Shown: in pieces, positions 2,956 to 60,530 of the stretch
Layout of the letters: each line of letters opens with the position of its first letter
Position numbering within the stretch: position 1 is the first letter of the stretch
Assembly: GCF_004010195.1 (NCBI RefSeq)
Contig: NC_057754.1
Span: forward strand, 2,326,228-2,390,227
DNA length: 64,000 nucleotides
Direction: 5' to 3'
DNA from: Chiloscyllium plagiosum
Lineage: Eukaryota
The notes under the pieces: generated by a model
What the model was told of the DNA's origin: nothing
Database searches by the model: none
What the model saw: the letters and a program-made list of their open reading frames with translations, nothing else
Position numbers and translations under genes: made by a program

Positions 2956-3064
2956 TCAAATGTCTGACTTGCTGGTCTACATGATTATGTTTATCCATTT
3001 TGGGTTACCAAAGGGGGTTTTAAGTTTAGAAATATTACTTTTCTCAAACCTACCTCCAAAACAG

Positions 3065-3595
3065 TTATAGAGTCATAGAGTCATACAGCACAGAAACAGA
3101 GTCTTCAGTCCAACCAGTCCATGCCAAACTAGTCTGCTCCTGACCCATATCCCTCCAAGTATTTCTTATTCATGTACTTATCCCAATATCTTTTAAACAT
3201 GGTAACTGTACCACATCCACCACTCCCTCTGGAAGTTCATTCCATACACGAACCATTCTCTGTTTAACACAAATTGCCCTGATTTCTTTTTAAAATCCTT
3301 CTCCTCTCACCTTAAAAATGTGTCCCCTGTCTTGAAATCCCCCACCCTAGGGAAAAAACACTTACCATTCACCTTATCTATACCCCTCATAATTTTATAA
3401 AGCTCTAATGAAAAATGTCCCAGCCAATCCAGCCTCTCCTTGTAACTCAAGTCCTCCATCCCTGGCATTGTAAATGGTAAATCTCTACTGAACCCTCTCC
3501 AGTTTAATAATAATCTTCCTATAACAAAACCTCGACACAGTACTCCAGAAGAGGCCTCACCAACATCTGCACAACTTCAGCGTAACGTCCCAACT
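3065..3595 (-). mobile_element. CR1/HER1-type LINE 3' fragment
   Basis: Begins with the tagagtcatagagtc tail repeat; reverse complement of the CR1 3' region seen at 39400-39970. Confidence 0.85.
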
Positions 3596-4795: not shown

Positions 4796-5609
4796 CGAGA
4801 TTAATGATTGTGCAATCCTAAATTGAGATCATTTTCTTTCAGTACTTGCGGTGTTTTCCAATTTGATACTTTGTCAGTGACACTGCTATTTGTTCATTTC
4901 TCCTTTTATTTTTGTCATTGCTGACACTGATAACCTGAACTCATCTTGTGGTTGATGAGTAGTGATACAGACAGTAGCAGGAGTGCAGCAATTACTGCAA
5001 AGTTCATTTAGCCCATTTTTGCAATGTTCCTCATGCAAGAGATCATTTTGAGATACGCACTGGTGCAGTGTGCGAGTGAATGCGATGGGAATGGGAGTTA
5101 GGAGAATGGAGACAAAAGCACTTTTGATGAGGTATATTTTTTCCAGGGGACGATGAAGAGGAATGAAAAGTGATGAGTTGCTGGTGGTGGCCTGGATTGA
5201 AAAAACCATAAGACGGGAGATAGCATGTTGAAGGACATTGGGATATTTGATTGGTGTGGATGTCGAGGATAGGCCAGAGTGATGACTAGTGCCATGACAT
5301 CAATATGATGTGGGCCATAGGAGCTGGTGGAGCTCGCCAAACTGAGGAATCGTGAGGTTGTGTATGAAAGGATTCAAGCTGCAGGTTTTAGATTAGCTGA
5401 CAACCGTTAAACTGATAAAATGTACAGCATGTATCTCAGGCTCAGCTAGCTCTTATTGTGAGAATTTGGCAACTCACTGGTTTCAGCAATATCAAGGATA
5501 TCTCCTTGGGTAGATCCTACCTCTGTCACCAAAGAGTTATAGTTACGTGGTGAAACAGCAAATAGGTTACATACTCTACGTTGCGATGAAATCTGCATTC
5601 ACAGTGCTG

Positions 5610-6228
5610 GAAAGTGTCCTTTATTGCGAGAAGGATGGAATTTAAAAATAGGGTGGTTACACTGCAGCTGTATAGGGTATTGGTGAGGCCACACCTGGAA
5701 TACTGTGTACAGTTTTGGTCTCCTTGCTTGAGAAAAGATTTACTAGAATGGGGCGGGGGGTGCAGAGGAGGTTCACTAGGTTGACGGTGCAGTTGAGAGG
5801 GTTGGCTTATGAGGAGAGACTGAGTAGACTGGGATTATACTTATTGGAATTTAGAAGAATGAGGGGGGATCTTGTGGAAGCATATAAAATTACAAAGGGA
5901 GTACATAAGATAGAAGCAGGGAGGGTATTCACACTGGCAGATGAAACTACAACTGGAGGGCATAGCCTCAAAATAAGGGGGAGCAGATTGAGGACTGAGT
6001 TGAGGAGGAACATCTTCACCAAAATGGTTGGGAATCTGTGGAATGCCCTTCCCATTGAAGCAGTTGAGGCTACTTCATTGAATGTTTTTAAGGCAAAGAT
6101 AGATAGAGATTTGAACAGTAAAGGAATTAAGGGCTATGGTAAGCAGACAGGTAAAGGGAGCTGATCAGCCACAGCGGAGCAGGCTTGATGGGCCAGATGG
6201 CCTACTCCTGCTCTTTGTTCTTATGTAA
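5610..6228 (+). mobile_element. CR1 LINE 3' fragment
   Basis: [13 protein letters not shown]...VQRRFTRL...YEERLSRLGLY.LEFRRMRGDL...GGHSLKI...WNALP (ORF 5715-6164) followed by a CR1 tail. Confidence 0.9.
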
Positions 6229-7417
6229 GTGACCAGAGGAGCTGATATCTCTGTACTTCCTACAACCTAGGCATTCATCTGGTTTCACATCCGATTTCTG
6301 AAGCTTTCTGTAATCATACAAATGTGAGTGTCTGTGCTACTTAACACGGACAAAAGCAGCATGTGACTCCGTTGATTAAAAGGACACTAAGATTGATAAT
6401 AAGGAATTGCTTGCAAATTTTTGCCACACGTGTTGTCACAGGGTGCATTTAGTTACAGCAATATACAATGAAGTATTTATGAAATATGAACAAATGGGCT
6501 ATGTTCAGGGCCTGCATACCCCATCATTTATGCATGCAAATGACATCAGAGTCACTTTAGCCGAGAGAGGGAAATAAATCACTGTAATAAGTACAACATT
6601 AGCCATGCCTGACTGCACATTTTTGTTTCAAGAAATATGGAGCTGTGTTACCATGAGTTTTGTTTAGTGTTAAATCCTTCATTTTGAACTGCAATCAAAA
6701 TTAAAATGAAAGATGTCTCATCGAGGGCGTTCCATTTCAACATATGGCTGAGGCAAACAGCGATACAGGACACCAATGATAGTAATCTCTGTCACTGGAA
6801 AATTCATCAGTTGAGAAATCATCATTTGTTTTTAAATAACAGTTATCTATTTGTTTGTGCATAGTCATTCTAACTGTATGTAGGACTATTTATGTCTTTA
6901 AGTTATGAGTCTAAGAGTCATGTTGTGTGATAAGAAGGAACAATTTCAAAGTGTCAAAAGAGTTGGGAAATATCTGATTTGAAATTTTCACTTCAGAGCT
7001 TTTATTTTCAGGTACATGGTCAGTGAATGCACTGACTTGTGTAGAAGTTGTTCTATCAGTACTAGCTACTATCTGGTACCCAAGCAATTGTAATTCAGAA
7101 CCTGCTCGTCTAACTAGAATGGTGACAGACTGCATCATGCTTAGGTCTCATCCTGTACATACCCAACAGCCAATAATTTCTCCATTCTGGTGATGGAAAC
7201 ATTAATAGCAACTATTTTCATCCATCCTGAATTGCCCTTGAGAAGGTGAAGGGGAGCTTCCTTCTTCAACTGCTGCAGCCCTTGTGGTGTGTGGACACTC
7301 ACTGTGTTGTGTGAAAGGATGTTCCAGGACTTTGTCCCAATGACAATGAAGGAAGAGGACTATAGTCCCAAGTCAAAGTTTAATATTATTTGGCGGGTAA
7401 CTTGCAGTTAGTGATAT

Positions 7418-8380
7418 TAGGTACAAAAGCTTAAGCACACATACCAACAGGTTCAAGAACAGTTTCTCCCTGCTGTTATTAGATTTGTGAATGGACCTCT
7501 CAAATTTCAAATCTTACGCTGATCTTGCTTTCTGTGCATCTTCTTTGCAGCCATAATTTTGTATTCCTCATTCTGTTCAATCACCTGCGCCCACACCTCC
7601 CCCCCACCCCCACTAACTCCATTCAAGGCCCCAAAGGATCCTTCCACATCCGGCAGAGATTTTCCTGCACATCCAAACACCTCATCTACAGTGTCGTTTT
7701 CTCAATATGGTCTCATCTACACTGGGGAGACAGGACGCCAACACCGTGGAACATTTCAGAGAACATGCCTGGACAACAGTCACGGAACGACCCCACTGCC
7801 CTGTGGCCAACCACTTCAACTCCCCCTCCTGCTCCGCCAAGGATGTGCAAGTCCTGCACCACCTCCACCACCAAATCCTAGCCACCGACACCTGGAGGAA
7901 GAATGCCTCATCTTCCATCTTGGGGCTGTCCAACCATACAGCATCAACATGGATTTCACCAGTTTCCTCATCTCCCCGCCCTCCACCTTATTCCAGATCC
8001 AACCCTCCAACTCGGCACTGCCCCTTTGGACTGTCCTACCTGTCCATCATCCTTCCCACCTATACGCTCAACCCTCCACTCCAACCTATCCCCCACTTTC
8101 ATCTACCTATCGCCTTCCCAGCTACCTTGCCCACCCCCTCATTCCTGATGAAGTGCTTATGCCCAAAACATTGATTCTCCTGCTCCTTGGATGCTGCTTG
8201 ACCTGCTGTGCTTTTTCAGCGCCACACTGTTTGACTCTGATCCCCAGCATCTGCAATTCTCACTTTCTCCTATCACCCTAATGCACTTTGCATGGTATGA
8301 TCGGTCTGTACTGCACGCAAAACAAAACTTATCACTGTACCTGTGTACATGTGACAGTATAAATCAAATCGAATCAAATC
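7418..8380 (+). mobile_element. Rex1-type 3' end interrupted by a PLE insertion (7586-8271)
   Basis: 7418-7585 and 8272-8380 are collinear with 1295-1550; ATCACC is duplicated at 7580-7585 and 8272-8277. Confidence 0.7.
7586..8271 (+). mobile_element. Penelope-like element 3' fragment (GIY-YIG endonuclease remnant plus terminal repeat)
   Basis: IQGPKGSFHIRQRFSCTSKHLIY...YGLIYTGETGRQ...HFREH...PVANHFNSP, then a decayed hammerhead (cctgatgaagtgcttatgcccaaaacattg, ~8144-8173) and the shared terminal sequence. Confidence 0.85.
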
Positions 8381-10445: not shown

Positions 10446-11024
10446 CTTTCGTTCCTTTATCACAAATACTTGTGGCCGTAAGTCCTCAGTCTGTTGATTT
10501 TTTTTCTCATCTCAAGGTGCGCAGGTCAGTAATGCACCTCCAGTGCTACACAGAATTGCCTTACCTTACCCAGCACAGACTGAGCTTCTATCCTCCTTAC
10601 TGTGTGTGTCTCAAGACCACACCAGTGAGTGTTTCCACATACGCATCAACTGACTAATAATGTCAGTCTGGTTCTCTGTGGTTTCAAATCAAATTCACTC
10701 AGCTTGCATTAAAAATCTGTGGCCTTGCTGGTTCCAAGATGAAAATGTGAGTGTCTTGGGGGCTCATTACACTATTGTGCTATGTTAGGGCATTATTTTT
10801 ATCACTGTTTAAAATCTGTGATTATCTAATGGTCTTGATTTGTGCTGCCTAAGGATTTTCAGAAAGGGAGTCTGTCACGTGTAAAAGCTCCTAACTCATA
10901 GATGATGTTGACCCTAAAATTCAACACACTGAGTTGGGCCAGTTTGGCACTATGAGTCAACTGTTCTACCCCTCGATGCTCTGAGATGACAGAATTTCCT
11001 GAGTCGGTTATTTTACATATGGAG

Positions 11025-11465
11025 TCAAAGAGTTATAGAGCTGTATAGCATGGAAACAGACCCTTCAATATCTTACCATTACGTGTATAAGTCCTAGCCT
11101 GATTTGCCTTTCCAAAATGCAGCAACTCACATTTATCTAAATTAAACTTCATCTGCCACTTCTCAGGCCATTGGCCCATCTGATCAAGGTCCCATTGTAC
11201 TCTGAGGTAACCTACTTCTTCGCTGTCCACTACACCTCCAATGTTGGTGTCATCTGCAAACTTACTAACCGTACCTCATATGTTCACATCCAAATCATTT
11301 ATATAAATGGTGAAAAGCAGTGGACCCAGCACACACTGGTCACAGGCCTCCAGTCTGAAAAGCAACCCTCCACACCATCTTGTACCTTCGAGCCAGCTCT
11401 CTATCCAAATGGCTAGTTCTCCCTGTATTCCATGTGATCTAACCTTGCTAACCAGTCTCCCATGG
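11025..11465 (-). mobile_element. CR1 LINE fragment (internally deleted, RT C-terminal part)
   Basis: Minus strand encodes SKFADDT...QWDLDQMGQW.EKWQMKFNLDKCE.LHFGKAN, joined to a CR1 tail. Confidence 0.85.
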
Positions 11466-16251: not shown

Positions 16252-17405
16252 TCATGATTTGGAGGAGCCGGTGTTGGACTGGGGTGAACAAAACTAAACA
16301 TCACAATACACCAGGTTACAGTCCAACAGGTTTATTTGGAAGCACTAGCTTTTGGAGCATAAGTGGTTGAAACTTTATTGCTGGAACAGCACAGCAGGTC
16401 AGGCAGCATCCAGGGAACAGGAGAAGGGCCTGTGCCCAAAACGTCGAATCTCCTGTTCCCTGGATGCTGCCTGACCTGCTGTGCTGTTCCAGCAATAAAG
16501 TTTCAACTTTGATCTCCAGCATCTGCAGACCTCACTTTCTCCTCGAGCATAAGTGGTTGCAGAGTATAAGATCATAAAACACAGAATTTATAGCAAAACG
16601 GTTACAGTGTCATGGAACTGTAATAATAGATTAAACAAATCCAGATTAAGTCTTTCATTTTTTAGAATGGGATATGCTAATTCCAGTTCTCTAATATGTA
16701 AATCCCAAAACTCCTTTTAAGTTACATTCTCAAAATAGTTTTAGCTTTTCTAAAAATAGGTGCCATCTCAGCTCAGACAATGCCTTTAAGGTGTACTTGA
16801 CCAAGCTCTCTCTCGCTCTCACTCTCTTTCGCTCTTTCTTTCTCTCTCTCTCTCTCTCTCTCACACACAGTCTTTCTCTCTCTCTCACACACATGTACTC
16901 ACGCCCCACATGCACACACTCACTCTATCTCTCCTGCGTGCGTACACATATAAGTTTATGGGGTGAATTTATATTTGCAGAATTACATTTTATTTTGCTG
17001 AAAAAAGCTGCATAAATCCAAGTAAGATTCTGTAAGTCCCACTTTAGAAATAGCACCAGCCTGACTCAACATTGGGTCACAGACAGACTTTAACGTCACA
17101 CCTTAAAGGCATTGTCTGAGCTGAGATGGCACCTATTGTTAGAAAAGCTAAGGCTATTTTGAGAATTTAACTTAAAAGGAGTTCTGGGACTTACATATTA
17201 AAGAACTGGAACTAGCATATCCCGTTCTAAAAAATGAAAGACTTAATCTGAATTGGTTTAATATATGATTACAGCTCGATGCTATAAATTCTGTGTTTTA
17301 TGATTTTATACTCCACAACCACAGATGAAGGAGCAGCACTTAGAAAGCTAGTGCTTCCAAATAAACCTGTTGGACTGTAACCTGGTATTGTGTGATTTTA
17401 AACTT
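16252..17405. mobile_element. PLE-derived asymmetric fold-back element
   Basis: Arms ~16252-16794 and ~17098-17405 are inverted. TSD-like cttcaagtaaaag (16239-16251) / cttcaaataacag (17403-17415). Contains a nested insertion. Confidence 0.85.
16370..16544. mobile_element. Nested small PLE fold-back (same family as 58405-58939)
   Basis: Arms ~16366-16424 and ~16449-16507; perfect 15-bp TSD gagcataagtggttg at 16355-16369 and 16545-16559. Confidence 0.9.
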
Positions 17406-17500
17406 CAAATAACAGGAACAACTGCAAAACCTTATTCTACATTTCCAGACTTGCCATTTGTCTTTTTCAGCTGCCTGTAATGCACAACTGAACTCATCCA

Positions 17501-17530
17501 CTGATGAAGGGCTCCGGCCCGAAACGTCGA
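17501..17530 (+). ncRNA. Minimal type I hammerhead ribozyme motif
   Basis: CUGAUGA A GGGC-UCCG-GCCC GAAAC GUC; predicted cleavage after 17528. The 5' strand of stem I is lost by truncation. Confidence 0.75.
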
Positions 17531-17627
17531 TTTTCCTGCTCCTCAGATGCTGCCTGACCTGCTGTGCTTTTCCAGCACCACACACTCTCGACTTTGATCT
17601 CCAGCATCTGCAGTCCTCACTGTCTCT
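17501..17627 (+). mobile_element. PLE terminal-repeat insertion starting at the hammerhead
   Basis: TSD tcatccactg at 17494-17503 and 17628-17637. Confidence 0.85.
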
Positions 17628-18884
17628 TCATCCACTGCTACTACTGAGCGATGATGTCTCTGTATTCCCTTATGTAATGTCAACAGTTTCGCTCTCTGCA
17701 GAAGCTTTAGTTTCCATCTCAGTTCCAAGTTTTAGCCTGCGCTGACATATTTTGCCCATCTATACTAGAACTATCTTTACTTACATGACCTGTATCCCTC
17801 TATTACCTTCCAATTCATGTATTCATCCAGGTGTTTCTTGTATTGTTTCTGCTTCCACCATTCCAGCTCATTCCTGACACCATCTTTTTATGTGAAAAAC
17901 TTGCTTCACAAATCTCTTTTAAACCCCCTCTGCCCACCCATGGACCTGTGTCCCCCTTGTAATCAATCCCTCCATCTTATTCACAATCTTATAAACTTCT
18001 ATCAGTTATGTTTTTCCTTTCTCTCTTCATTCGTTTTCAGTTGCCCATTTCAGTTTCTGCTTTAAGTTAGGATCTGCCTCAAAATCTCCATCTCTGAAGC
18101 TACGCATTCCATCATCGGATCAGTAGTTGAGTAAGGGGAGGGGAGTGTAAGTTGCAGCGCTGAGTGAGAGGAAGATTGATTCTTGCCAGAAAGGGTATCT
18201 TTCAGTGAACAGATTTTAAAGTACTGAGCATTAACACCTGATTACAGGTCTCATTGGTGAGCATTGAGTGCAAATGAAGATATGTTTGGCACTTCCGATG
18301 TCGCCAAGGGAGTGGCTTCTTTTAGCATTTCATCAAATAATTCTGAGTTCCAAAGTTGCTGCTTTTCTAATGTGAGCTTCTCTCAAAGGTAGTTCAGCAG
18401 ATTCATGTGGCTTTGTCAAAATGCTTTGAATAAGAGAATACACATTTAGGTTTATTCTGTAACTTTCTCTTTTGAGCTTCTTGTGACTTTAATCCTCTGA
18501 GTTACAATGGTCTAACCATGTCCCATAATGGCTCTGAAAAGAAAGGCTGCATAGGATCAGTTACTGATTCGAGGCCTGCAGCTTTGTAATGGGTTGGTAA
18601 TGGGTTCATTTCAGTCGGCTGCAACATCTGAATGCTTATCAACCTCGCAACGAGGGTGACTTTTAAGGACCCTTGGAATCTCATTGTTTTTGTGTACCTT
18701 CAGGGTCTTGTGCATTCATGCCAAAGTGGCTGGAATCACGAGCAAAAGCTCTCCCAAATCCCAAGTAAAAATGTATTGTGGCTTTTCAGATGGAATGGGA
18801 AGGGAGTTTTAAGGAAAACCAATTTGTGTAGATGTCAAGTCTGTTGCCTTGTGGCTTTGCCAGGACTCAGGGACTGATGATCCA

Positions 18885-19640: not shown

Positions 19641-21121
19641 CAAAATATTTCCAATGATTAACTAAAAAGGTATGAACAATAGTCCCCTATTCACCTAATG
19701 ATCTACCTGTTTACTTCTGGACTCCTCGCTATATCTGATGGGTATGAGCTAGAATCTACAAAGAAAATACTTTCAAAACAGACAACTAATCTGACATCTC
19801 TCCAAAAAGAGATTTCTGGTAAAAGCAAATATCAAAGTACATGGCTGTAACTTGCAGGCAGCTCGGTTCTGATTTGCAATGTGAAGTTTACTAACCTAAG
19901 ACAACTACCCTTTTAATTTATTATCTTGAAAATATATTGTCCTCCATGTATAATTTTTTTAAATTTCCCCTTTTCGATGCAGAATAAAGTTAGTTCACAT
20001 GGAGAGTCCCAGAAACTTCCTTGTGTGCAAGAAAACACCACTTAAACCCCCCATCTGATCACAATGGAAAATTAACCCCAACTACCAGGCTGAGACTAAT
20101 TCTCTCAGCAATTACATGCATTCAGTCCCATGCATGAATGCAAGGGATGATTTTCAACTGTTGACTCAAATTCACTAAGAGACATTTTTACAGTATAAGT
20201 AGATGTTTCAAATATCGAACCATTCAAGGCTATTTTCTAAAACCAGTGAGCATAAACTAATCATGAAAACATCCATTATTCCTTGCGAGTAAATACAGTT
20301 ACTGAACTTTCCTCACGAAAGTGCAGCGCATTACCCAATGTGCAATAAAGTGAAAGTAATTAAAATCACAACAGTCCCAGACTATTGGACTTCTCTCTCA
20401 TTAGAGAGACAACTGGTGGTGGTTTAATCTGAGGGTCAGATTAAGGAGTGCGTTCGAAAAAGAGGGATGTTCATTTTAACCTCAGCCAGAATGGGAACTG
20501 AACATGCATTGTTGGCATCACGTTGCATCAAAGATCCATGCAACTGAGCTAATGTTGATTACCAAAGTACTGCTCTGTCCCAACTTGGGAAAACAGCGTC
20601 TTGTAAAAGGACACAAGAAGTTCCAAAGAAAAGCCCAAGTGATCATTTATAATCCATTTCACCTTATGTTTATGTCACAACACGTAGCAACAGAAAGGAA
20701 ACAATTAATTCAAATAGCAGCTTAAGTGCAAGTGGCATTTTCTGAACTCTTACCAAAGCTTGGCTAACATTTCCACCAGTGGCTAGGGATTTGAAGTGGC
20801 TACTGTTGTAAACCAATTGAACTTCAGCAATGTCCACGATCTCCAGCTCTTCTTGACTATGACGGTCCACCACATGGAGCTTCTCTGCACTGTCCAGTAG
20901 AGCCAATGTACGAGAATTAATCCACTGTGTGCAGAGAAAGGGGAAAGTTAACAATACATTCTCCCCTGATTGTTCATGCAAAATGTGAATTCCACCCAAA
21001 TGATGGAACAAAGACAAAACATTATTTTGTATGATTCGGAGATGTCGGTGTTGGACTGGGGTGTACAAAGTTAAAAATCACACAACACCAGGTTATAGTC
21101 CAACAGGTTTAATTGGAAGCA

Positions 21122-21156
21122 CACTAGCTTTCGGAGCGACGCTCCTTCATCAGGTG
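21122..21156 (-). ncRNA. Minimal type I hammerhead ribozyme motif
   Basis: Minus strand: CAC CUGAUGA A GGAGC-GUC-GCUCC GAAA GCUA GUG (stem I CAC/GUG; palindromic AGCU helix III). Confidence 0.8.
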
Positions 21157-21665
21157 ATTGTGGAGGGCTCGATCGTAACACAGAATTTATAGCAAAAATT
21201 TGCAGTATGATGTAACTGAAATTATACATTGAAGAATTGATTGTCTGTTAAGCCTTTCATCTGTTAGAATAAGTGATAGTTTCACTTCTTTCATGTGTAA
21301 ATCACAAAACCCTTTTTTTTAAAGTTGCATTCTCGGGTTAGCTGTTAACAATGGTGATAGCTAGACAATGTGTTGAAGGTGTTAGCCCCCTGTGTTCTCT
21401 GTCTATAACCTGATGTTTAGATTGATTCCAATCTAAAAAGTGAGATAACAGAGTTTTACATAAATTCATACAGTTTTTGAGTAACTTTAATGCAACTTTT
21501 AAAAAAAGGGTTTTGTGATTTACACATGAAAGAAATGAAACTATCACTGTATTCTAACAGATGAAAGGCTTAACAGACAATCAATTCTTCAATGTATAAT
21601 TTCAGTTACATCACACTGCAAATTTTTGCTATAAATTCTGTGGTTATGATCGAGCCCTCCACAAT

Positions 21666-21700
21666 CACCTGATGAAGGAGCGTCGCTCCGAAAGCTAGTG
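21666..21700 (+). ncRNA. Minimal type I hammerhead ribozyme motif
   Basis: CAC CUGAUGA A GGAGC-GUC-GCUCC GAAA GCUA GUG; predicted cleavage after 21697 (CUA). Confidence 0.8.
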
Positions 21701-23031
21701 TGCTTCCAATTAAACCTGTTGGACTATAACCTGGTGTTGTGTGATTTTTAACTTTGTACACCCCAGTCGAACACCGGCATCTCTGAATCATTTCTATGTA
21801 TAGTCAGCACTGCCAGATGCATGTATGATCATTCAATCTAACTGCCAGAAGGATGATAAGCCCCTGTTTGGTGTGGGTTCTTTTATGACCTCCCCATGAT
21901 GCAGACCTGCACTTTCAGGATAACTGTCCACTTATGTGGTCTCAGACTCAGATAGCCATGTTTAAAAAATGCAAAAACAGGGTGTAGTAGACCCCACAAC
22001 ACGGGTGACATACTGGGAGCCTAAATAGATTAATGCAGTGAAATCGTGCTATTAACTAGCTGTTTCGAGACTTTGCTAAAATGTTTTTAAAAAGTAACTT
22101 TTGAACATCATGTATTTTCCAAGAAGCAGGAGAGTTAAATGAAGATGGTAATTTAGCAATCTAAATCCTCACACACTCCTGAAATCGTTGATGTTAGTGG
22201 GAACATCATACAGGTCAGTAAATGTATTTCCTGGCTGGAACAGGGGGGATTTCATGGGCCACATTTGACATTTGGCCTGAATGCTAACAAGACAAAATGC
22301 AAAGGCAAGTAATGTTCTGAAAGTAGTTTTTATGCTGCTGGAACATTGCATTATAAATATAGTAACAAATAAATGAGATAGCTGGAAGTAGGGGAGATGT
22401 CAGCGAGCTGAGTTATAGAAGATTGTCTTGTTTAATCCGCAACTGTTTTGATTGCTTGGGAATGAAAGAGACTTCTAAGTATCTCAGAAGCAGAAATGAT
22501 CAAGGAGAACTGGGTTAATTTACGGACAGGATTAAGTGTTGTATCACAGAAACAGGCAAAATGCTTTATAATTAAATGCACAAAGCCACATCTTCTGTAC
22601 GAGTATCTCACTGACTTGGTTTAATGTAGCACAAAGCTAGATAGAGCCGATTTGATCCCCAATCCACACTAAATTAATTGGTCTTGAATAGGCCGATGTG
22701 CGCCAGCACTTCTAGCTGAAAATAGAGAAATACATTCTGCATTCCTACTCCTGACCACTTTGCAGGAACTCCTCGAAACTTACTGAAGATGTGAAGTTGT
22801 CAGATAAAGTCGAAATGTTGACAAATGAGTGGTTGCTTGGCAGTGGAAAACTGATAAACAGTCTTTCACTGTGTACACTGGACACATGAGTAATGATTAC
22901 TTGGTTGTGAGATAAGAACCGATGATGAAGCCTGGGTAAAAATGTTCTCCTGATAACGAGTTTTGAGAAGATTTGTAGCTCAGGTTGAGGTTCTGGATGT
23001 AGGTTTGCATGCTGAGCTGGAAGGTTTGTTT

Positions 23032-25984: not shown

Positions 25985-26293
25985 GGATTAGATTAGATAC
26001 AGTGTGGAAACAGGCCCTTCGGCCCAACCAGTCCACACTGACCCTCCGAAGAGTAACCCACCCAGACCCATTTCCCTCTGACTAATGCACCTAACACTAT
26101 GGGCAATTTAGCATGGCCAATTCACCTGACCTGCACATCTTTGAACTGTGGGAGGAAACCGAAGCACCCGGAGGAAACCCACGCAGACACAGGGAGAATG
26201 TGCATACTCCACACAGACAGTTGCCTGAGGCTGGAATCGAACCTGGACCCTGGTGCTGTGAGGCAGCAGCGCTAACCACTGAGCCACCATGCC
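25985..26293 (-). mobile_element. HE1-type SINE
   Basis: Reverse complement of the HE1 consensus seen at 629-947 and 57905-58225. Confidence 0.9.
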
Positions 26294-26688: not shown

Positions 26689-26850
26689 ACATAGATAGCG
26701 TTGTTGAGGTGGCATTATTCATGCTTGCCTGCATTACTCACCTTTGTTTTTAGGGGTTGGAACGTTATGTTGAGATTGCACAGGATATCGGTGAGGCCTC
26801 TTCTGGAGTACTGTGTCCAATTCTGGTGGCTGTGCTACAGGAAGGATATT

Positions 26851-27010
26851 AAATGAAGGTCTTTTGCCCGAAATGTCGATTTTCTGATGAAGGGCTTTTG
26901 CCCGAAACGTTAATTTTCCTGCTCCTCGGATGCTGCCTGACCTGCTGTGCTTTTCCAGCACCACTCTAATCTTGACTCTAGCCTCCAGCATCTGCAGTAC
27001 CCAATTCTGC
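26851..27010 (+). mobile_element. PLE terminal repeat with tandem duplicated hammerhead, inserted in CR1
   Basis: TSD cta(c/t)aggaaggatatt at 26835-26850 and 27011-27026. Partial motif at 26853-26880, then CUGAUGA A GGGC-UUUU-GCCC GAAAC GUU at 26884-26911. Confidence 0.85.
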
Positions 27011-27509
27011 CTATAGGAAGGATATTGTTAATTTTGAAGATGGTTCAAAAGAGGTTAACCAGGATGTTGCTGGGAATAGAGGTTGAGTTATAAGGAGAGG
27101 CTGGATACGCAGGAACTTTTTTCACTGGAGTATAGGAGGTTGAGGGGTGACCTTATAGAGGTTTATATAATCATGAGGGGTATAGACTAGGTGAATGATG
27201 TGTCTTTTCCCAAGGATAGGGGATTTCAAGACTCAGAGGCATATTTTTAAGGTGAGAGGAGAATAATTTAAAGAAAGACACAGGCAGAATTTCTTTTTAA
27301 GCAAAGAGTGATTCATGTGTGGAATGAAACTTCTAGAAAAGGAAGGGGATGCGGGTACAGTTAAAATGTTTAAAAGACATTTGAGTAAGTACATAGAATA
27401 AGAAAAGTTTGGAGGGATATGGGCCAGGCGCAGGCAGGTGGGACTAGTTTAGTTTGGGATTATGGTCAGCGTGGACGGGTTGGACCAAAGGGTATGCTGT
27501 ATGACTCTA

Positions 27510-35024: not shown

Positions 35025-35710
35025 GAGATACATCCAGGGCCCCAAACAATTCGCCCTGGTGAGACAGAGGTTCACCTGCCTCTCCTCCAACCTAGTTTAC
35101 TGTATCCGGTGCTCCCGATGTGGTCTGCTCTAGATTGGGAGATCAAATGTAAACTCAGGGCACATTTCGCTGAGCATCTAAGCCGGGCCTGCAAGGGCTG
35201 ACCTGATCTCCCAGGCACTGCCCAATTTAATTCCCCTTCCCACTCCCTTTCCAACATGACCATCCTCGACCTCCTCCATTGCCATGATGAATCAGATTGC
35301 AAATTGGAGAAACAGCACCTCATCTTCTGCCTGCGCAGCCTACAATCTGGAGGAGTCAATACTGAGTTCTCTAATTTCAAATTCCCTCCCTTCCCATTCC
35401 CCAACTCCCTTCCCAGCCCCAACCCCTCCCTTCCATCCCTCTGATCAACCCTTCCTTCCAGCTATCACCAGATTCATTCCTCCCATCGACCAACCAGGCC
35501 GTACCCTCTATCCATGTTCACCTAACCCCACTTCACCACCCTGTCCCTCTCCCCACCCAAAACCCTCCCTCAACACCCCCCCTGCCCTTTATCTGCAGCT
35601 CCCCCAAGACCCACCCCCAGTCCTGAAGAAGGGTTACACCTGAAACATTGACTTCACCTCCTGATGCTGCCTGGCTTGCTGTGTTCCTCCAGCCTCCTGC
35701 TTGTCTATTG
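35025..35710 (+). mobile_element. Penelope-like element 3' fragment (GIY-YIG plus terminal repeat)
   Basis: IQGPKQFALVRQRFTCLSSNLVYCIRCSRCGLL*IGEIK.KLRAHFAEHL...KLEKQHLIFCLRSLQ.GGVN.EFSNF; hammerhead at 35619-35653. Confidence 0.88.
35619..35653 (+). ncRNA. Hammerhead ribozyme motif (decayed)
   Basis: AGUC CUGAAGA A GGGU-UAC-ACCU GAAAC AUU GACU (stem I AGUC/GACU). Confidence 0.65.
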
Positions 35711-36015
35711 GGTGATTACGAGGCAGCAGTAACTCTCTGGTGACTCAAAATACCTATCTCCCCAACTATGAATTGCAGGTGATATTGCAAAATCGCCTGC
35801 ATTAATGTAATGCTTACAATGTTGTTCCAAGGCTTTTTACAGGAGCTTTATCAGAGGTAAATCTGCACCAAAATGGAAGGAGATGCTAAGAGACAAGCTA
35901 AGATGCTTTATTGTTTAGTTTCCAGACAAAGGAGGGAAAGATGACATGTAGGGGGAGTACAGAATTTAGGCCCTAGCCAGTCACCAATGGGTGAACAAAG
36001 GATTATATTACACTT

Positions 36016-54325: not shown

Positions 54326-54934
54326 NNNNNNNNNNNNNNNNNNNNNNNNNNNNNNNNNNNNNNNNNNNNNNNNNNNNNNNNNNNNNNNNNNNNNNNNNNN
54401 NNNNNNNNNNNNNNNNNNNNNNNNNNNNNNNNNNNNNNNNNNNNNNNNNNNNNNNNNNNNNNNNNNNNNNNNNNNNNNNNNNNNNNNNNNNNNNNNNNNN
54501 NNNNNNNNNNNNNNNNNNNNNNNNNNNNNNNNNNNNNNNNNNNNNNNNNNNNNNNNNNNNNNNNNNNNNNNNNNNNNNNNNNNNNNNNNNNNNNNNNNNN
54601 NNNNNNNNNNNNNNNNNNNNNNNNNNNNNNNNNNNNNNNNNNNNNNNNNNNNNNNNNNNNNNNNNNNNNNNNNNNNNNNNNNNNNNNNNNNNNNNNNNNN
54701 NNNNNNNNNNNNNNNNNNNNNNNNNNNNNNNNNNNNNNNNNNNNNNNNNNNNNNNNNNNNNNNNNNNNNNNNNNNNNNNNNNNNNNNNNNNNNNNNNNNN
54801 NNNNNNNNNNNNNNNNNNNNNNNNNNNNNNNNNNNNNNNNNNNNNNNNNNNNNNNNNNNNNNNNNNNNNNNNNNNNNNNNNNNNNNNNNNNNNNNNNNNN
54901 NNNNNNNNNNNNNNNNNNNNNNNNNNNNNNNNNN
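54326..54934. other. Assembly gap (609 N)
   Basis: Run of n. Confidence 1.
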
Positions 54935-55525: not shown

Positions 55526-56589
55526 TCTAAATCTGTCTCCTCTGACCTCTGTCAAGACGCTCCTTAAAACTGACCTCTGACGGAGCTTTGGGTCAGAGTT
55601 TGGGTTTGATGTCATTCCTGAGAAGCACTTTGGAATGTTTTACTACATCAAAGGCATTTAAATAAACACAGTGTTCCTGTTGTTGAAAGGAGCCCCCAGT
55701 TCTCGAATCACTTTTCAAATCTGCAGTCTATGGCTGGCTCAATTATTGACCGGTTAAATTGGTTCACTTGTCATGAAGTCGCTGCAGTTAATAATTTTTA
55801 TCCTTCTTTTGGAAGCGGTAAAGAGGAAGGAATTGGGTGAGAGGGGAATTCTATTACCACACACCCCCTTTGCCCACTGTTTCCAGACACTTGTCCCCTT
55901 TATTACTGAGTGGGTTAAAATGAGAAATGAGACGCCTTTCCAACACTGCTGAGTGATCCTTGTTTGTAATGAATTTTATGATTGACGATTGAGTGCATAA
56001 GAATCCTGGGACCTGTCCAGCATTTGCGAGTGGCAGAAAACCAGTTTAAACTGGATTAATGTCATTCACCTCTCTTACACCTGTACAAGAGTTTGCTGAC
56101 TTGATCCATATTGATCAGCTGCTCTTCATTTGTCACTGTGTTTGGGGATATATATTCGCGTGTTCTTTCAGTCAGTATCTCTATCTCTGTCCATGCCATT
56201 GATATAGTTTAATATGCTGAGATGGACGGTGGACAAAATATCTGACTCACTTCTGTTTTTCAGCATGTTTGATACAGAAGGTTGCATTCTCACCTAATAC
56301 ATTACAAGCCTGCATCATGAGAAAGTTCTCAGATTTGATTCCCAGGCTGCTCAAGATAGCCAACTGTGGGGGTGGGGGATTGAGTGGAGGGGGGGGAGTG
56401 GATTTAAGATAAAAGTAGCCCTACGTGGTTAGCTTTGCCGAATTCACTCAGCATTCTGAGCAGAACTTAACTCTGCCTCTGACAAATCCTTCCAGACCAT
56501 GTTGGACCAGGGCTGGAAAAAAGGAGCATCCTGAAGGCTAATGGGACAGGGTTGGTAAAGCTTGCTTCAATTGTGTGGAATCTTTGGTA

Positions 56590-57100
56590 GACTGCACCTC
56601 GAATATTGTGTGCAATTTTGGTCCCCTTACTTTAGGAAGGATGTTATTGCCACAGAGGGAGAGGAAAAAAGTGTTCCCTGGACTATCTATGAAGAGAGAT
56701 TAGAGAAATTGAGCCAGTATTCTCTAGAGCTTTGAAGAATGACGTGATTTCGTTGAGAACCCATGAAATACTTAAAGGGATAGACAGAGGAGATGTGCTG
56801 GAAATCACAGTAGGTCAGGCAGCATCCATGGAGAACGTGCACACTAATGTTTCGAGTCTAGGTGACTCTGATGAAGAGACATCTCGACTCCAAACATTAG
56901 CCTGTTCTCTCTGCACAGATGCTGTCTGACCCGCTGTGATTTCCAGCAATTTTTGTTTAGAATTCTCTCCACTCAGTCATTGGATATGTTTCAAATAGAG
57001 ATTGATAGATTTCTGAATGCCAATGACGAAAAGGATTTTGGAATGGTGTGGGAAAAAGACATTGAAGTGGATGGTCAGCCATGATAGTATGGAATGGCAG
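56590..57100 (+). mobile_element. CR1 3' fragment containing a PLE fold-back (~56795-56958); the CR1 resumes at 59052-59120
   Basis: cacctcgaatattgtgtgcaattttggtcccc; inverted gtgctggaaatcacag.../ctgtgatttccagca with a decayed hammerhead at ~56868-56900. Confidence 0.75.
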
Positions 57101-57166
57101 GAGGCTGGAAGAAGACAGCAAGCCAGGCAGCATCAGGAGATGGAGAAGTTGACGTTTTAAGCTAGA

Positions 57167-57304
57167 CCAAAAGTGAGGACTGCAGATGCTGGAGATCAAG
57201 ATTAGAGTGTTGCTGGAAAAGCACAGCAGGTCAGGCAGCATCCGAGGAGCAGAATAATCGACGTTTAGGGCAGGAGCACTTCATCAGGAATGAGGCCTAC
57301 AACC
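57167..57304 (-). mobile_element. Nested PLE terminal repeat with decayed hammerhead (57260-57287)
   Basis: TSD-like tttaagctaga (57156-57166) / ttcgagctaga (57305-57315). Confidence 0.75.
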
Positions 57305-57344
57305 TTCGAGCTAGAGGTCAGGGTGAGTAGTACAAGCTGCTAAC

Positions 57345-57660
57345 CAAGTTAAGATTCAGGGTGAGTTTGAATGTTGACACCGAGGTTAGAATAAGACCAG
57401 ATGCTGAGATTGGAAATCAGAGACAGTCCGGGTGTTAAGATTGGAGTTTAGAACACATCTGGGTATTAAGACTGGGGTTTAGGATAAAGCTGGGTGTTGA
57501 GACTGGGGTTCATTACCTACCTGGATGTTCAGAGCACTCCTGGATATTGAGACAAGAAATTTAGGATGTATCTCGGTATTGAAGGTGGGTTTTCAGCAAC
57601 TTTCTGCCTATTGAGACTAGGGTTCAGGAAATCTCAAAGTTATAATTAGGATTCAGGTGC
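57345..57660. repeat. Degenerate ~31-bp minisatellite
   Basis: gggtattaagactggggtttaggataaagct-like units. Confidence 0.7.
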
Positions 57661-57904
57661 ACAGATGTAATTGTTTATTGAGTTTCTGAATCAAATTAAA
57701 ATTTGTTCAGGTTATCCTTATACTTTGCTATTGTAGGGATTGAGTTGAGTGATATCATCCAAATAAAAGCAGAAGTTGTTTGAAAGCCCCCAGTGTCTGT
57801 TAGGAAAATTGGGCTGGTAATGTTGAACAGAAGCCCTGTTCTACTGCAACAGTAGTAACCCTGCCAACTCTATGGGCATTTAAATGGTCATTGGATAAAC
57901 ATAT

Positions 57905-58225
57905 GGGCAGCACGGTGGCTCAGTGGTTAGCGCTGCTGCCTCACAGCACCAGGGTCCAAGGTTCGATTCCAGCCTCGGGTGACTGTCTGTGTGGAGTTTG
58001 CACATTCTCCCCGTCTCTGCGTGGGTTCCTCCGGGTGCTCCAGTTTCCTCCCACAGTCCAAAGATGTGCAGGTCAGGTGAATTGGCCATGCTAAATTGCC
58101 CATAGGTTAGGTGCATTAGTCAGAGGGAAATGGGTCTGGCTGGGTTACTCTTTGGAGGGTTGGTGTGGACTTGTTGGGCCAAAGGGCCTGTTTCCACACT
58201 GTAGGGAATCTAATCTAAAAATCTA
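57905..58225 (+). mobile_element. HE1-type SINE, full length
   Basis: A and B boxes and aatct tail; atatgg duplicated at 57901-57906 and 58226-58231. Confidence 0.92.
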
Positions 58226-58495
58226 ATATGGATAATAATGGAGCAGGGTAGGATGAATAGGCTTCGGATTGGTTCCACAGGTCAGCACAACATCAAGGGC
58301 CGAAGGGCCTGTACTGCGCTGTAATAGAGTCATAGAGCTATAGAGATGTCTGTGTTCTCTCAGTGTAACCCTTCTTCAGGACTGAGGAAGGGTTACACCC
58401 GAAAAGAAAGTGAGGTCTGCAGATGCTGGAGATCAAAGTTGAAACTTTATTGCTGGAACAGCACAGCAGGTCAGGCAGCATCCAGGGAACAGGAG

Positions 58496-58531
58496 ATTCG
58501 ACGTTTCGGGCACAGGCCCTTCTTCAGGAAT
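58496..58531 (-). ncRNA. Minimal type I hammerhead ribozyme motif
   Basis: Minus strand: AUUC CUGAAGA A GGGC-CUGU-GCCC GAAAC GUC GAAU. Confidence 0.82.
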
Positions 58532-58845
58532 GAGCAGAGAGTGTTCAGCAGGAGAAAATAAAAGGTAGGGAGGAGGGACTTGGAGGAGGGGCGTTGGAAA
58601 TGTGATAGGTGGAAAGAGGTCAAGATGAGGGTGATAGGTCGGAGTAGGATGGAGGCGGAGAGGTCTCTACTGGACCTCCAAAAGGACCTCTACTGTTCTT
58701 CATCCACAGAAGACCTCTCCGCCTCCATCCTACTCCGACCTATCACCCTCACCTTGACCTCTTTCCACCTATCACATTTCCAACGCCCCTCCTCCAAGTC
58801 CCTCCTCCCTACCTTTTATCTTCTCCTGCTGAACACTCTCTGCTC

Positions 58846-58881
58846 ATTCCTGAAGAAGGGCCTGTGCCCGAAACGTCGAAT
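58846..58881 (+). ncRNA. Minimal type I hammerhead ribozyme motif
   Basis: AUUC CUGAAGA A GGGC-CUGU-GCCC GAAAC GUC GAAU; stem I AUUC/GAAU; predicted cleavage after 58877. Confidence 0.82.
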
Positions 58882-59734
58882 CTCCTGTTCCCTGGATGCT
58901 GCCTGACCTGCTGTGCTGTTCCAGCAATAAAGTTTCAACTTACACCCGAAACATCGACTTCTCCACCTCCTGATGCTGCCTGGCTTGCTGTGTTCTTCCA
59001 GCCTCCTGCTTATTTACCTTAGATTCCAGCATCTGCAGTTTTTTTGTCTCTATGATAGTATGGAATGGCAGAACAGATTTGATGGACTAAATGGCCTGCT
59101 CTTGTTCCTATGTTTATGTTATAATGGATTCAAAGTCTGCTCGCTCAATCATTGGCTAGATTTGAACTGCTTGGTCTATCGTTTGTCATTTGAAACATTG
59201 GTAGTGTCAGACTACAAAATAGAAAGCATCTCTGTGATATAGACGAGATTTTCGTTTTCATTTAAACTGTATTATGGTCTTTTCTAATAACAAATATTGT
59301 CGACAGCCATAATCAAAGATTCTGGGTGTTACTATTGAATTACCATCCAAAACTGTAGTGTTTCCTTTGAGCAATGTACACCCTGTAGCTGTACTCATTC
59401 AGTTGAGGGACAGTGCTAACTGTGGTCAGCATGAGGTCTCTTTGACCTTGTTTGACCTGAAACTTTGAGAAAATCTGGGCCAATCCCTATGCATCACTGT
59501 CTCTCCCACAACTGGTGGCTCTGACCTACTGTTGGGACATACCCATGGATGTTGATGAAGGAGTCTGGGATGAGGGCTAATAAATAGATTAATTCTGGGC
59601 AAGTGTGCAGAACAGTATCAGTCATCCAATGTCAATGAGGAGGAATTTACAAAGTTGATTGAAATTCCCATAATCTTATCTTGGTGTCCTTATCAGGAAA
59701 TTATACACCAGTTAAGCCGAACATCTGGGAGAAT

Positions 59735-60530
59735 AAGGTCAGAAGTCAGACAACACCAGGTTATAGTCCAACAGGTTTAATTGAGATCACAAGCTTTTGG
59801 AGCATTGCCCCTTTGTTAGGTAGAGCGAGAGAGAAGCATACAGGCAGAGAATTTATGGGCAGAGAGATCAAAAAACCATACAAATGGTGTGAGTGGAGGG
59901 TCGAGAGGCTGAGTAATAAGTCTCTGCAGGAGATCATCAGAGTCAGACGGTGTGAGTAAAGTTGAGAGTGTGGTGCTGGAAAAGCACGGCAGGTCAGGCA
60001 GCATCCAAGGAGCAGGAAAATTGACATTTTGGACAAATGCCCTTGGTCAGGAATGAGGCTGGGAACCTTGGGAGTGGAGAGATAAATGAGAGGTGGGTGG
60101 GGCTGGGGAGAAAGTAGCTGAGAGTGCAATAGGTGGATGAAGGTGGGGGTAATGGTGATAGGCCAGAGAGGAGGGTGGAGCAGATAGGTGGGAAGGAAGA
60201 TGGACAGATAGGACAGGTTGTGAGGGCAGTGCTAAGCTAGAAGGTTGGAACTGGGATAAGGTGAAGGGAGGGGAAATGAGGAAACTGGTGAAATCCACAT
60301 TGATGCCATGGGGTTGGAGGATCCCAAGGCAGAAGATGAGGCGTTCTTCCTCATGGGTGATAAGGGAGTGGTGAGGGAGGAGGCCCTCCATTTATCTGTT
60401 CTCATAGCGTCTGCATGGTCTCGGCAATATACCATGCCTTGGGGGGTCCTTGCCTGCAGCATATGAGGTAGACAACATTGGCCAAGTTACTTGCCGTGTA
60501 TGTGATGGGTGTGTTCCCACGGCAGATACT
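59735..60530 (-). mobile_element. PLE (tagtccaacagg family) with GIY-YIG remnant, interrupted by a second PLE
   Basis: Terminal repeat at 59735-59960; minus strand at ~60390-60490 reads ANVVYLICCRQGPPKAWYIAETMQTL. Confidence 0.75.
59960..60390 (-). mobile_element. PLE 3' fragment (GIY-YIG C-terminus plus terminal repeat)
   Basis: EEERLIFCLGILQPHGINVDFTSFLISPP; homologous to 7890-8240. Confidence 0.85.

Follow-up and report, generated by a model that had tools for sequence, protein, structure and literature searches.

The 1,951 bp enclosed by a 20-bp target-site duplication in the window (the whole 64-kb stretch of DNA that was analysed) are made up of three pieces, an older stub of a Penelope-like element (PLE), here called A, a younger PLE fold-back (B) and a 1,205-bp block of foreign sequence, and from left to right they partition as 57 + 1205 + 42 + 535 + 12 + 100 bp. 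An earlier note on this DNA had described a single 1.95-kb fold-back, but 547 bp of it are B together with one copy of its own 12-bp duplication. The nest is real and is made of known kinds of insertion. As it stands the locus is a dead, non-coding heap of mobile DNA of little significance; it is nonetheless a clean teaching example of nesting order, and its lesson is that a unit bounded by a duplication may comprise more than one event.

The host site and the two PLE insertions

The features of the host site and of the two PLE insertions are as follows (the foreign block, 57158–58362, separates the two parts of the inverted arm of A and is listed in the next section):

56500–57100, + strand: left part of the host CR1-type LINE 3' region (tblastx to other LINE copies in the window and collinear alignment of the re-joined site)
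57081–57100, + strand: 20-bp target-site duplication of PLE stub A, left copy (the final 4 nt also form microhomology with the arm)
57101–57157, − strand: PLE stub A, outer part of the inverted tail-less arm, ending at the GAAA of the hammerhead core
58363–58384, − strand: PLE stub A, inner part of the inverted arm (22 nt identical to family copy 35590–35715; hairpin z −6.1)
58382–58404, + strand: PLE stub A, first part of the tail-bearing arm (hammerhead CTGANGA, helix II, GAAA)
58393–58404, + strand: left copy of the 12-bp duplication of B
58405–58939, − strand: younger PLE fold-back B (arms 229/231 complementary; both hammerhead cores intact)
58405–58666, − strand: tail-bearing arm of B
58667–58710: centre of B, 44 nt
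58711–58939, + strand: tail-less arm of B
58940–58951, + strand: right copy of the 12-bp duplication of B
58952–59051, + strand: PLE stub A, second part of the tail-bearing arm, including its 42-nt one-sided tail
59052–59071, + strand: right copy of the 20-bp target-site duplication of PLE stub A
59072–59125, + strand: remainder of the host CR1 tail (alignment to 6160–6240, z 11.7, 0/200 shuffles)

CR1 reading frames from other parts of the window match the left flank (tblastx, best E 1.5e-8), which an old PLE palindrome (56796–56948) interrupts. When that palindrome and 57101–59071 are removed, what remains is one CR1-type 3' end that is collinear with the copy at 5560–6250 (287/434 columns identical, z 8.1, 0/100 shuffles). 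Since the CR1 flanks re-join collinearly in this way, the 1,951 bp are inserted at this site and not native to it. The earlier note had claimed a perfect 20-bp duplication that splits a CR1 3' tail, and both halves of that description hold: the direct repeat 57081–57100 / 59052–59071 is identical at 20/20 positions, where about 1e-5 such pairs are expected per 4.5 kb, and its two flanks form a single CR1 3' end.

Without B, stub A is about 200 bp long and has two arms. Its inverted tail-less arm consists of 57101–57157 and 58363–58384, minus 3 nt at the foreign block, and its tail-bearing arm of 58382–58404 and 58952–59051, with a tail at 59010–59051 in the right arm only. The outer part of the inverted arm is complementary to 58949–59005 at 53/57 positions and, like the inner part, aligns to family copy 35590–35715. 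The break of the left arm inside its hammerhead was correctly seen before: the arm ends at 57157 and continues at 58363 with 3 nt missing. At the centre of A the antisense register of the family copy is kept through 58384, with a CTG overlap with the sense arm, and 58363–58384 is assigned to the left cDNA because the centre follows this register in the one comparator at hand. The arm on either side of the block is thus a single register, which argues for an interruption of a single cDNA by the block and against filler laid down where two cDNAs met; the assignment of 58363–58381 to a fold-back of the right cDNA, with the block as filler, was rejected on the same single comparison. Both hammerhead cores of A are destroyed, and the motif in A is visible, with one change, only when B is removed.

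Stub A probably had a two-primer origin. The PLE would have cut an old CR1 tail on both strands, with the two nicks 20 bp apart, and would then have copied the end of its own RNA twice, one copy per target end, to give a fold-back whose arms overlap by the 3-nt CTG. The inverted arm begins with the same 4 nt that close the left copy of the 20-bp duplication, a match that would be predicted if a separate cDNA had been primed by the second target strand, with the RNA as template. Purified lizard PLE protein nicks and extends both strands, initiating at two sites that bracket the tail, and in vitro it starts inside its own RNA without homology (PMC11167929).

Element B corresponds to the long inverted repeat 58436–58666 / 58711–58941 (229/231 complementary, 99%), with a tail at 58405–58435 in the left arm only, and it is identical to the copy at 16422–16545 at 118/119 positions. 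Its 12-bp duplication is exact and sits in the right hammerhead of stub A. B is a separate insertion and is younger than A; mismatches over arms plus duplications number 2/243 in B versus 5/94 in A (Fisher p 0.02), and divergence from the nearest relative in the window is 0.8% for B versus 5.0% for A. The most recent step at the locus would have been the insertion of B, a member of a second PLE family, at the mirror position in the right arm of A, so that its 12-bp target in the right arm mirrors the stretch of the left arm in which the block sits (p ~0.13 taken alone). Sub-threshold Rfam microRNA matches in this region were rejected, as they arise from the perfect hairpin of B.

Both A and B have an inverted truncated copy joined to a tail-bearing copy, a one-sided tail and a target-site duplication around the whole (20 bp and 12 bp, respectively). 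The terminal repeat carries a minimal hammerhead motif (CTGANGA, helix II, GAAA and a short helix III) that is intact in both arms of B. By our reading, a credible duplication of 10–20 bp lies beside the tail in 6/11 tail-bearing stubs of the window. Rfam returned no hammerhead match, and nothing overall at gathering level. A link of the family to a frame for reverse transcriptase plus GIY-YIG endonuclease is only putative. The decayed frames at 35031–35390 and 7700–7960, which lie beside family copies, presumably resemble the endonuclease end of a PLE; Pfam found no match in the decayed frames beside the PLE family copies (4/4 and 5/5 frames without one) and no endonuclease domain among them. 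The motif is as given in PMC4209133.

Contents and junctions of the foreign block

57158–58362, no strand: foreign block, 1,205 bp (loss of 3 nt from the target; neither duplication nor poly(A))
57170–57296, − strand: PLE stub C inside the block (114/122 to copy 17493–17625; hammerhead core with its GAAA broken)
57367–57645, no strand: decayed 31-bp minisatellite (57367 to ~57645 scores above the 99th background percentile for the unit)
57646–57830, no strand: unique sequence of ~185 bp, unmatched in the window
57830–58360, + strand: CR1-type 3' end, left boundary approximate (SINE and a 24-nt inverted tail piece inside; hairpin 58297–58310)
57907–58225, + strand: tRNA-derived SINE (286/305 to copy 25986–26292)
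58326–58349, − strand: 24-nt piece of a LINE/SINE microsatellite tail, reversed (matches 11019–11044 and 3064–3088; E 0.003 and 0.009)

That the block is not native at this site is supported by the way in which the flanks and both halves of the arm of A re-join cleanly without it. The earlier note allowed that the block might after all be native, with the layout produced by a local inversion or duplication; within the window the clean re-joining contradicts this, since removal of 57101–59071 restores a collinear CR1 end (287/434, z 8.1, with z 11.7 for the right piece alone) and removal of the block restores the arm of A, and we consider that explanation extremely improbable. Two details of the earlier description need correction. 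The foreign DNA was said to begin at about 57310 and to span about 1 kb, and it was taken to be wholly non-PLE; it begins at 57158, is 1,205 bp long and contains a third PLE stub, C, at 57170–57296.

Only 12 unassigned nt at the start of the block (57158–57169) precede stub C, which puts the tail end of C at that distance from the left junction. The ends of C lack any exact duplication of at least 8 nt. A 7-nt repeat (57160 and 57309) flanks it and may be a decayed duplication; it is not flush with the tail. The 31-bp minisatellite reported earlier was recovered by TRF at 57430–57510 (2.6 copies, 82%). In comparisons of the unique part, 57646–57830, with the window, blastn gave a best E of 0.028 over 26 nt and nhmmer no match. 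Neither a second copy of 57297–57840 nor a local donor was found in the 64-kb window, which reaches no further than 5 kb downstream and is broken 2.2 kb upstream by a 609-N gap (54326–54934).

The right part of the block is, as had been noted, a CR1 3' end with a tRNA-type SINE inside it. The SINE is flanked by a 6-bp duplication (57901–57906 / 58226–58231), has A and B boxes at ~57917 and ~57960 and has at least six relatives in the window; it is a putative HE1 element. HE1 appears among the shark tRNA-derived SINEs in PMC3747384. After the SINE and the 24-nt piece had been removed by hand, the CR1 part was compared with five CR1 ends of the window that had been chosen from earlier weak matches, and this gave z values of 5.6, 3.4, 2.4, 1.9 and 1.3, with 0, 2, 4, 9 and 16 of 200 shuffles, respectively, scoring as well. 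The CR1 identity is thus strong in only one of the five alignments; the tail has the 24-nt inverted piece within it, and the hairpin at 58297–58310 has a z of −1.9. The two best alignments reach the terminal repeat, which stops about 2 nt before the right junction. Both ends of the block therefore adjoin outward-facing retroelement tails, that of stub C on the left and that of the CR1 end on the right.

The earlier observation that the block has no target-site duplication of its own also stands, the longest direct repeat at its ends being 3 nt. It contains no poly(A), the longest run of A being 5 and of T 4, and the lack of a poly(A) tail and of a duplication speaks against an origin as a LINE-1-type retrocopy (a class 1 insertion). 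About 650 of its 1,205 bp are recognisable mobile DNA. This amount, and the position of both block ends at element tails, would also suit an unrecognised repeat in place of a unique piece of host DNA, either a non-autonomous multi-copy element mobilised by CR1 or PLE or several separate small insertions stacked together (CR1 end, minisatellite-bearing repeat, stub C and SINE). We regard such a repeat as improbable, given that 57297–57840 has no second copy in 64 kb, that nothing similar turned up in an index covering only 148 stretches of this genome, and that by eye the non-repeat part has neither terminal repeats nor a duplication around it.

Sequencing runs bear on the interior of the block. 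All or part of 57300–57900 is contained in 20 of the 24 runs listed, and 58/58 sampled words of it are present in a run from a study other than the possible source study, which vouches for the block interior only. Runs of organism B (9 runs, 4 studies) hold 0.38–0.45 of the words, and runs of organism C (3 runs, 1 study) hold 0.28–0.34. For either organism these values are compatible both with an orthologue of ~96–97% identity and with a conserved part, and both with this locus and with a donor. None of the runs listed as containing 57300–57900 is an RNA run. A single metagenome match to a 21-mer was rejected as chance, since only those 21 letters agree.

A misassembly that joined unrelated sequence at PLE repeats is very unlikely. 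Inverted PLE structures are described as troublesome for short-read assemblies in PMC8557442, the window does contain the 609-N gap at 54326–54934, and the junctions are known from the assembly alone; but a mis-join would not leave three nested duplications (20, 12 and 6 bp), nor an arm that picks up again after 3 nt, and the 58/58 words speak against one for the interior of the block.

Timing and route of entry of the block

When and how the block arrived can be argued from its position and its junctions. We favour, at no better than even chances, its entry into stub A after A had formed, over its capture during the reverse transcription of A. The block, 1,205 bp derived from another place in the genome, would have entered the left arm of A at the hammerhead, with the loss of 3 bp. 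The earlier note had offered two routes, template switching during PLE reverse transcription and later capture at the hairpin; the second fits at least as well as the first because the block lies inside one arm, A was later struck by B and a CR1 tail stands at the end of the block, and the first is retained as the less favoured of the two. The block interrupts the cDNA arm 19–22 bp off the centre of the fold-back, and B shows that the hammerhead of A took another insertion later. Insertion of one PLE into another is described for Adineta vaga in PMC3846280.

Dating fits either order, because stub C and the SINE (6.6% and 6.2% diverged from their nearest relatives) are about as diverged as A (5.0–5.3%). 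The minisatellite looks older than A, its best units being 82% alike, and so looks imported and not grown in place. Other considerations weigh against later insertion. It requires a stub of 200 bp to have been struck twice afterwards, where a single later event would be the simpler history. The break in the arm falls 1 nt short of hammerhead helix II, a plausible pause site for a reverse transcriptase. The CR1 tail at the right end of the block is not clean, no donor was found in the window, and the mirror position of the two insertions counts for little by itself (p ~0.13).

Among the routes by which a later insertion might have occurred, reverse transcription of a host RNA primed from the CR1 tail at the right end is perhaps the best candidate, tentative as it is; it is suggested by the right end of the block lying about 2 nt from the CR1 terminal repeat. 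A random break would fall within 3 nt of a same-strand tail in 0.13–0.39% of cases, a post hoc figure with tail density taken from motif counts. According to PMC3747384, LINEs outside the LINE-1 group probably recognise their own 3' ends, and there are LINEs in which this recognition is stringent. A patch made by break repair seems unlikely. The tail of stub C, outward-facing and 12 nt from the left end, is a second possible primer, and priming of a reverse-transcribed host RNA from it is a shade more doubtful again. At zebrafish LINE 5' junctions the extra templated nucleotides derive from flanking DNA (PMC4760211); templating of that type fits poorly here, since the block has no local donor.

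Capture while A was being made is a possibility that we hold to be less probable than later entry. The reverse transcriptase would have stalled at helix II and switched to a host RNA, perhaps held via stub C, with copying from 12 nt beyond the tail of C, and after 1.2 kb would have returned to the RNA of A 3 nt further on. The position of the break 1 nt ahead of helix II and the return within 3 nt agree with this, as do the orientation of stub C, which is that of the left cDNA, and its place 12 nt from the junction; only one later event, B, is then required. The in vitro abilities of the PLE protein to extend both target strands and to start internally without homology (PMC11167929) would serve such a process, and in rotifers host DNA is found between PLE ends with duplications, as PMC3846280 reports. 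On the other hand, the out-and-back path demands two switches in the synthesis of one cDNA, the presence of a CR1 tail at the right junction would have to be a coincidence, and clear microhomology is absent at the return point.

The earlier note went on to propose that these fold-backs are vehicles for moving host DNA. This proposal is unproven: neither a donor nor a second copy was found in the window, and a later patch would leave A a passive target. A more general and improbable idea is that breaks or pauses might recur at helix II of vertebrate PLE stubs, where the PLE enzyme would switch to host transcripts that bear stubs, starting from the stub tail, copy about 1 kb and return, or where PLE-primed and CR1-primed cDNAs would meet head to head. 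If this were true, millions of dead stubs would be handles for the dispersal of host DNA by shark PLEs. An out-and-back switch at the hammerhead during insertion would matter, since the building of inverted PLE ends and the carriage of host DNA by PLEs are still open questions in PMC11167929 and PMC8557442, and shark genomes carry enough PLE copies for such events to be counted.

Comparison with known systems

A and B share head-to-head arms with a one-sided tail with the inverted 5'-truncated insertions of endonuclease-bearing PLEs (Craig et al. 2021, PMC8557442; Arkhipova et al. 2013, PMC3846280), and the target-site duplication and the minimal terminal hammerhead of those insertions are likewise found in both. 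They differ from them in being merely non-coding stubs of 200–535 bp, and A has a 42-nt tail and a 20-bp duplication, whereas the rotifer examples have duplications of 8–10 bp (PMC3846280).

Captures of host DNA by PLEs are already known in a rotifer; no report of such capture in sharks was found in a literature search that left out supplements and most subscription journals. In Adineta vaga, host DNA lies between Penelope pLTRs, namely an NRPS gene and the 0.9–1.5 kb Pen1 spacers (PMC3846280). The locus described here shares with these cases about 1 kb of unrelated DNA within PLE ends and a duplication around the whole. The Adineta cargo, however, lies between complete pLTRs and an empty allele has been shown for it, whereas the cargo here is non-coding and interrupts one arm, 19–22 nt off centre, and is not placed between intact terminal repeats. 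In spite of this off-centre place, the block may work like a capture of the Adineta type.

For mammalian LINE-1 there is a catalogue of 5' transductions and of chimeras that arose through template switching or twin priming (PMC13174262), and templated genomic insertions within LINE-1 events have been described (PMC11702581). Like the block, LINE chimeras have foreign sequence 5' of a LINE 3' end and a tail at the junction (PMC13174262). LINE-1 chimeras carry poly(A) and duplications (PMC13174262), whereas the block has a CR1-type tail and no duplication.

The junctions of the block, with no duplication, no poly(A) and 3 nt lost, are those of class 2 templated insertions (Onozawa and Aplan 2016, PMC5110952), which likewise have no duplication, a micro-deletion and no poly(A). 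Experimental class 2 inserts are 73–414 bp long (PMC5110952), whereas the block measures 1,205 bp and has both ends at retroelement tails. Class 2 insertions are presumed to be copies of distant DNA (PMC5110952), and the same is presumed for the block.

Element B and a second copy of its family

Between the inverted arms of B, the younger PLE (Penelope-like element) fold-back at 58405-58939, lies a 44-nt centre (58667-58710) that is a mosaic of 7-8 nt repeats of the sequence around it. This mosaic is the pattern that templated end-joining would be expected to leave, and some of the centre may be native element sequence. A second B-family copy is also present and is identical to B at 118 of 119 positions, but the centres of the two differ:

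16355-16559, short fold-back with a 15-bp duplication

The foreign block and the assembly gap

The foreign block (57158-58362) in the left arm of A, the older PLE fold-back stub, carries a CR1-type LINE 3' end at its right end and a 24-nt reverse-oriented LINE/SINE tail repeat at 58326-58349. Alternatively, an in-place inversion within the tail of the LINE itself, some 27 nt long, could account for this 24-nt piece (58318-58360). An assembly gap of 609 N (54326-54934) adjoins a GA-rich repeat, and a local donor of the block could be hidden within it.

PLE stubs and other inverted repeats

In the region around A, five short truncated PLE copies (stubs) lie within 3.4 kb. A search for a duplication around the old PLE palindrome in A's host CR1 found none. 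The palindrome and some additional stubs of the window are:

56796-56948, old PLE palindrome, arms 78% complementary, 150 bp from A
~59959-60184, PLE stub
26850-27015, PLE stub, 12-bp duplication, part of the hammerhead tandemly repeated on the 5' side
17484-17636, PLE stub, 10-bp duplication, starting just ahead of an intact hammerhead core

Other inverted repeats of the window include:

468-798, head-to-head SINE pair, 165-nt arms 95% complementary, 1 nt between them
16611-17281, inverted-repeat element, 184-nt inverted repeat, 92%
21031-21791, inverted-repeat element, 149-nt inverted repeat, 97%

The last two look like MITE-type DNA transposons.
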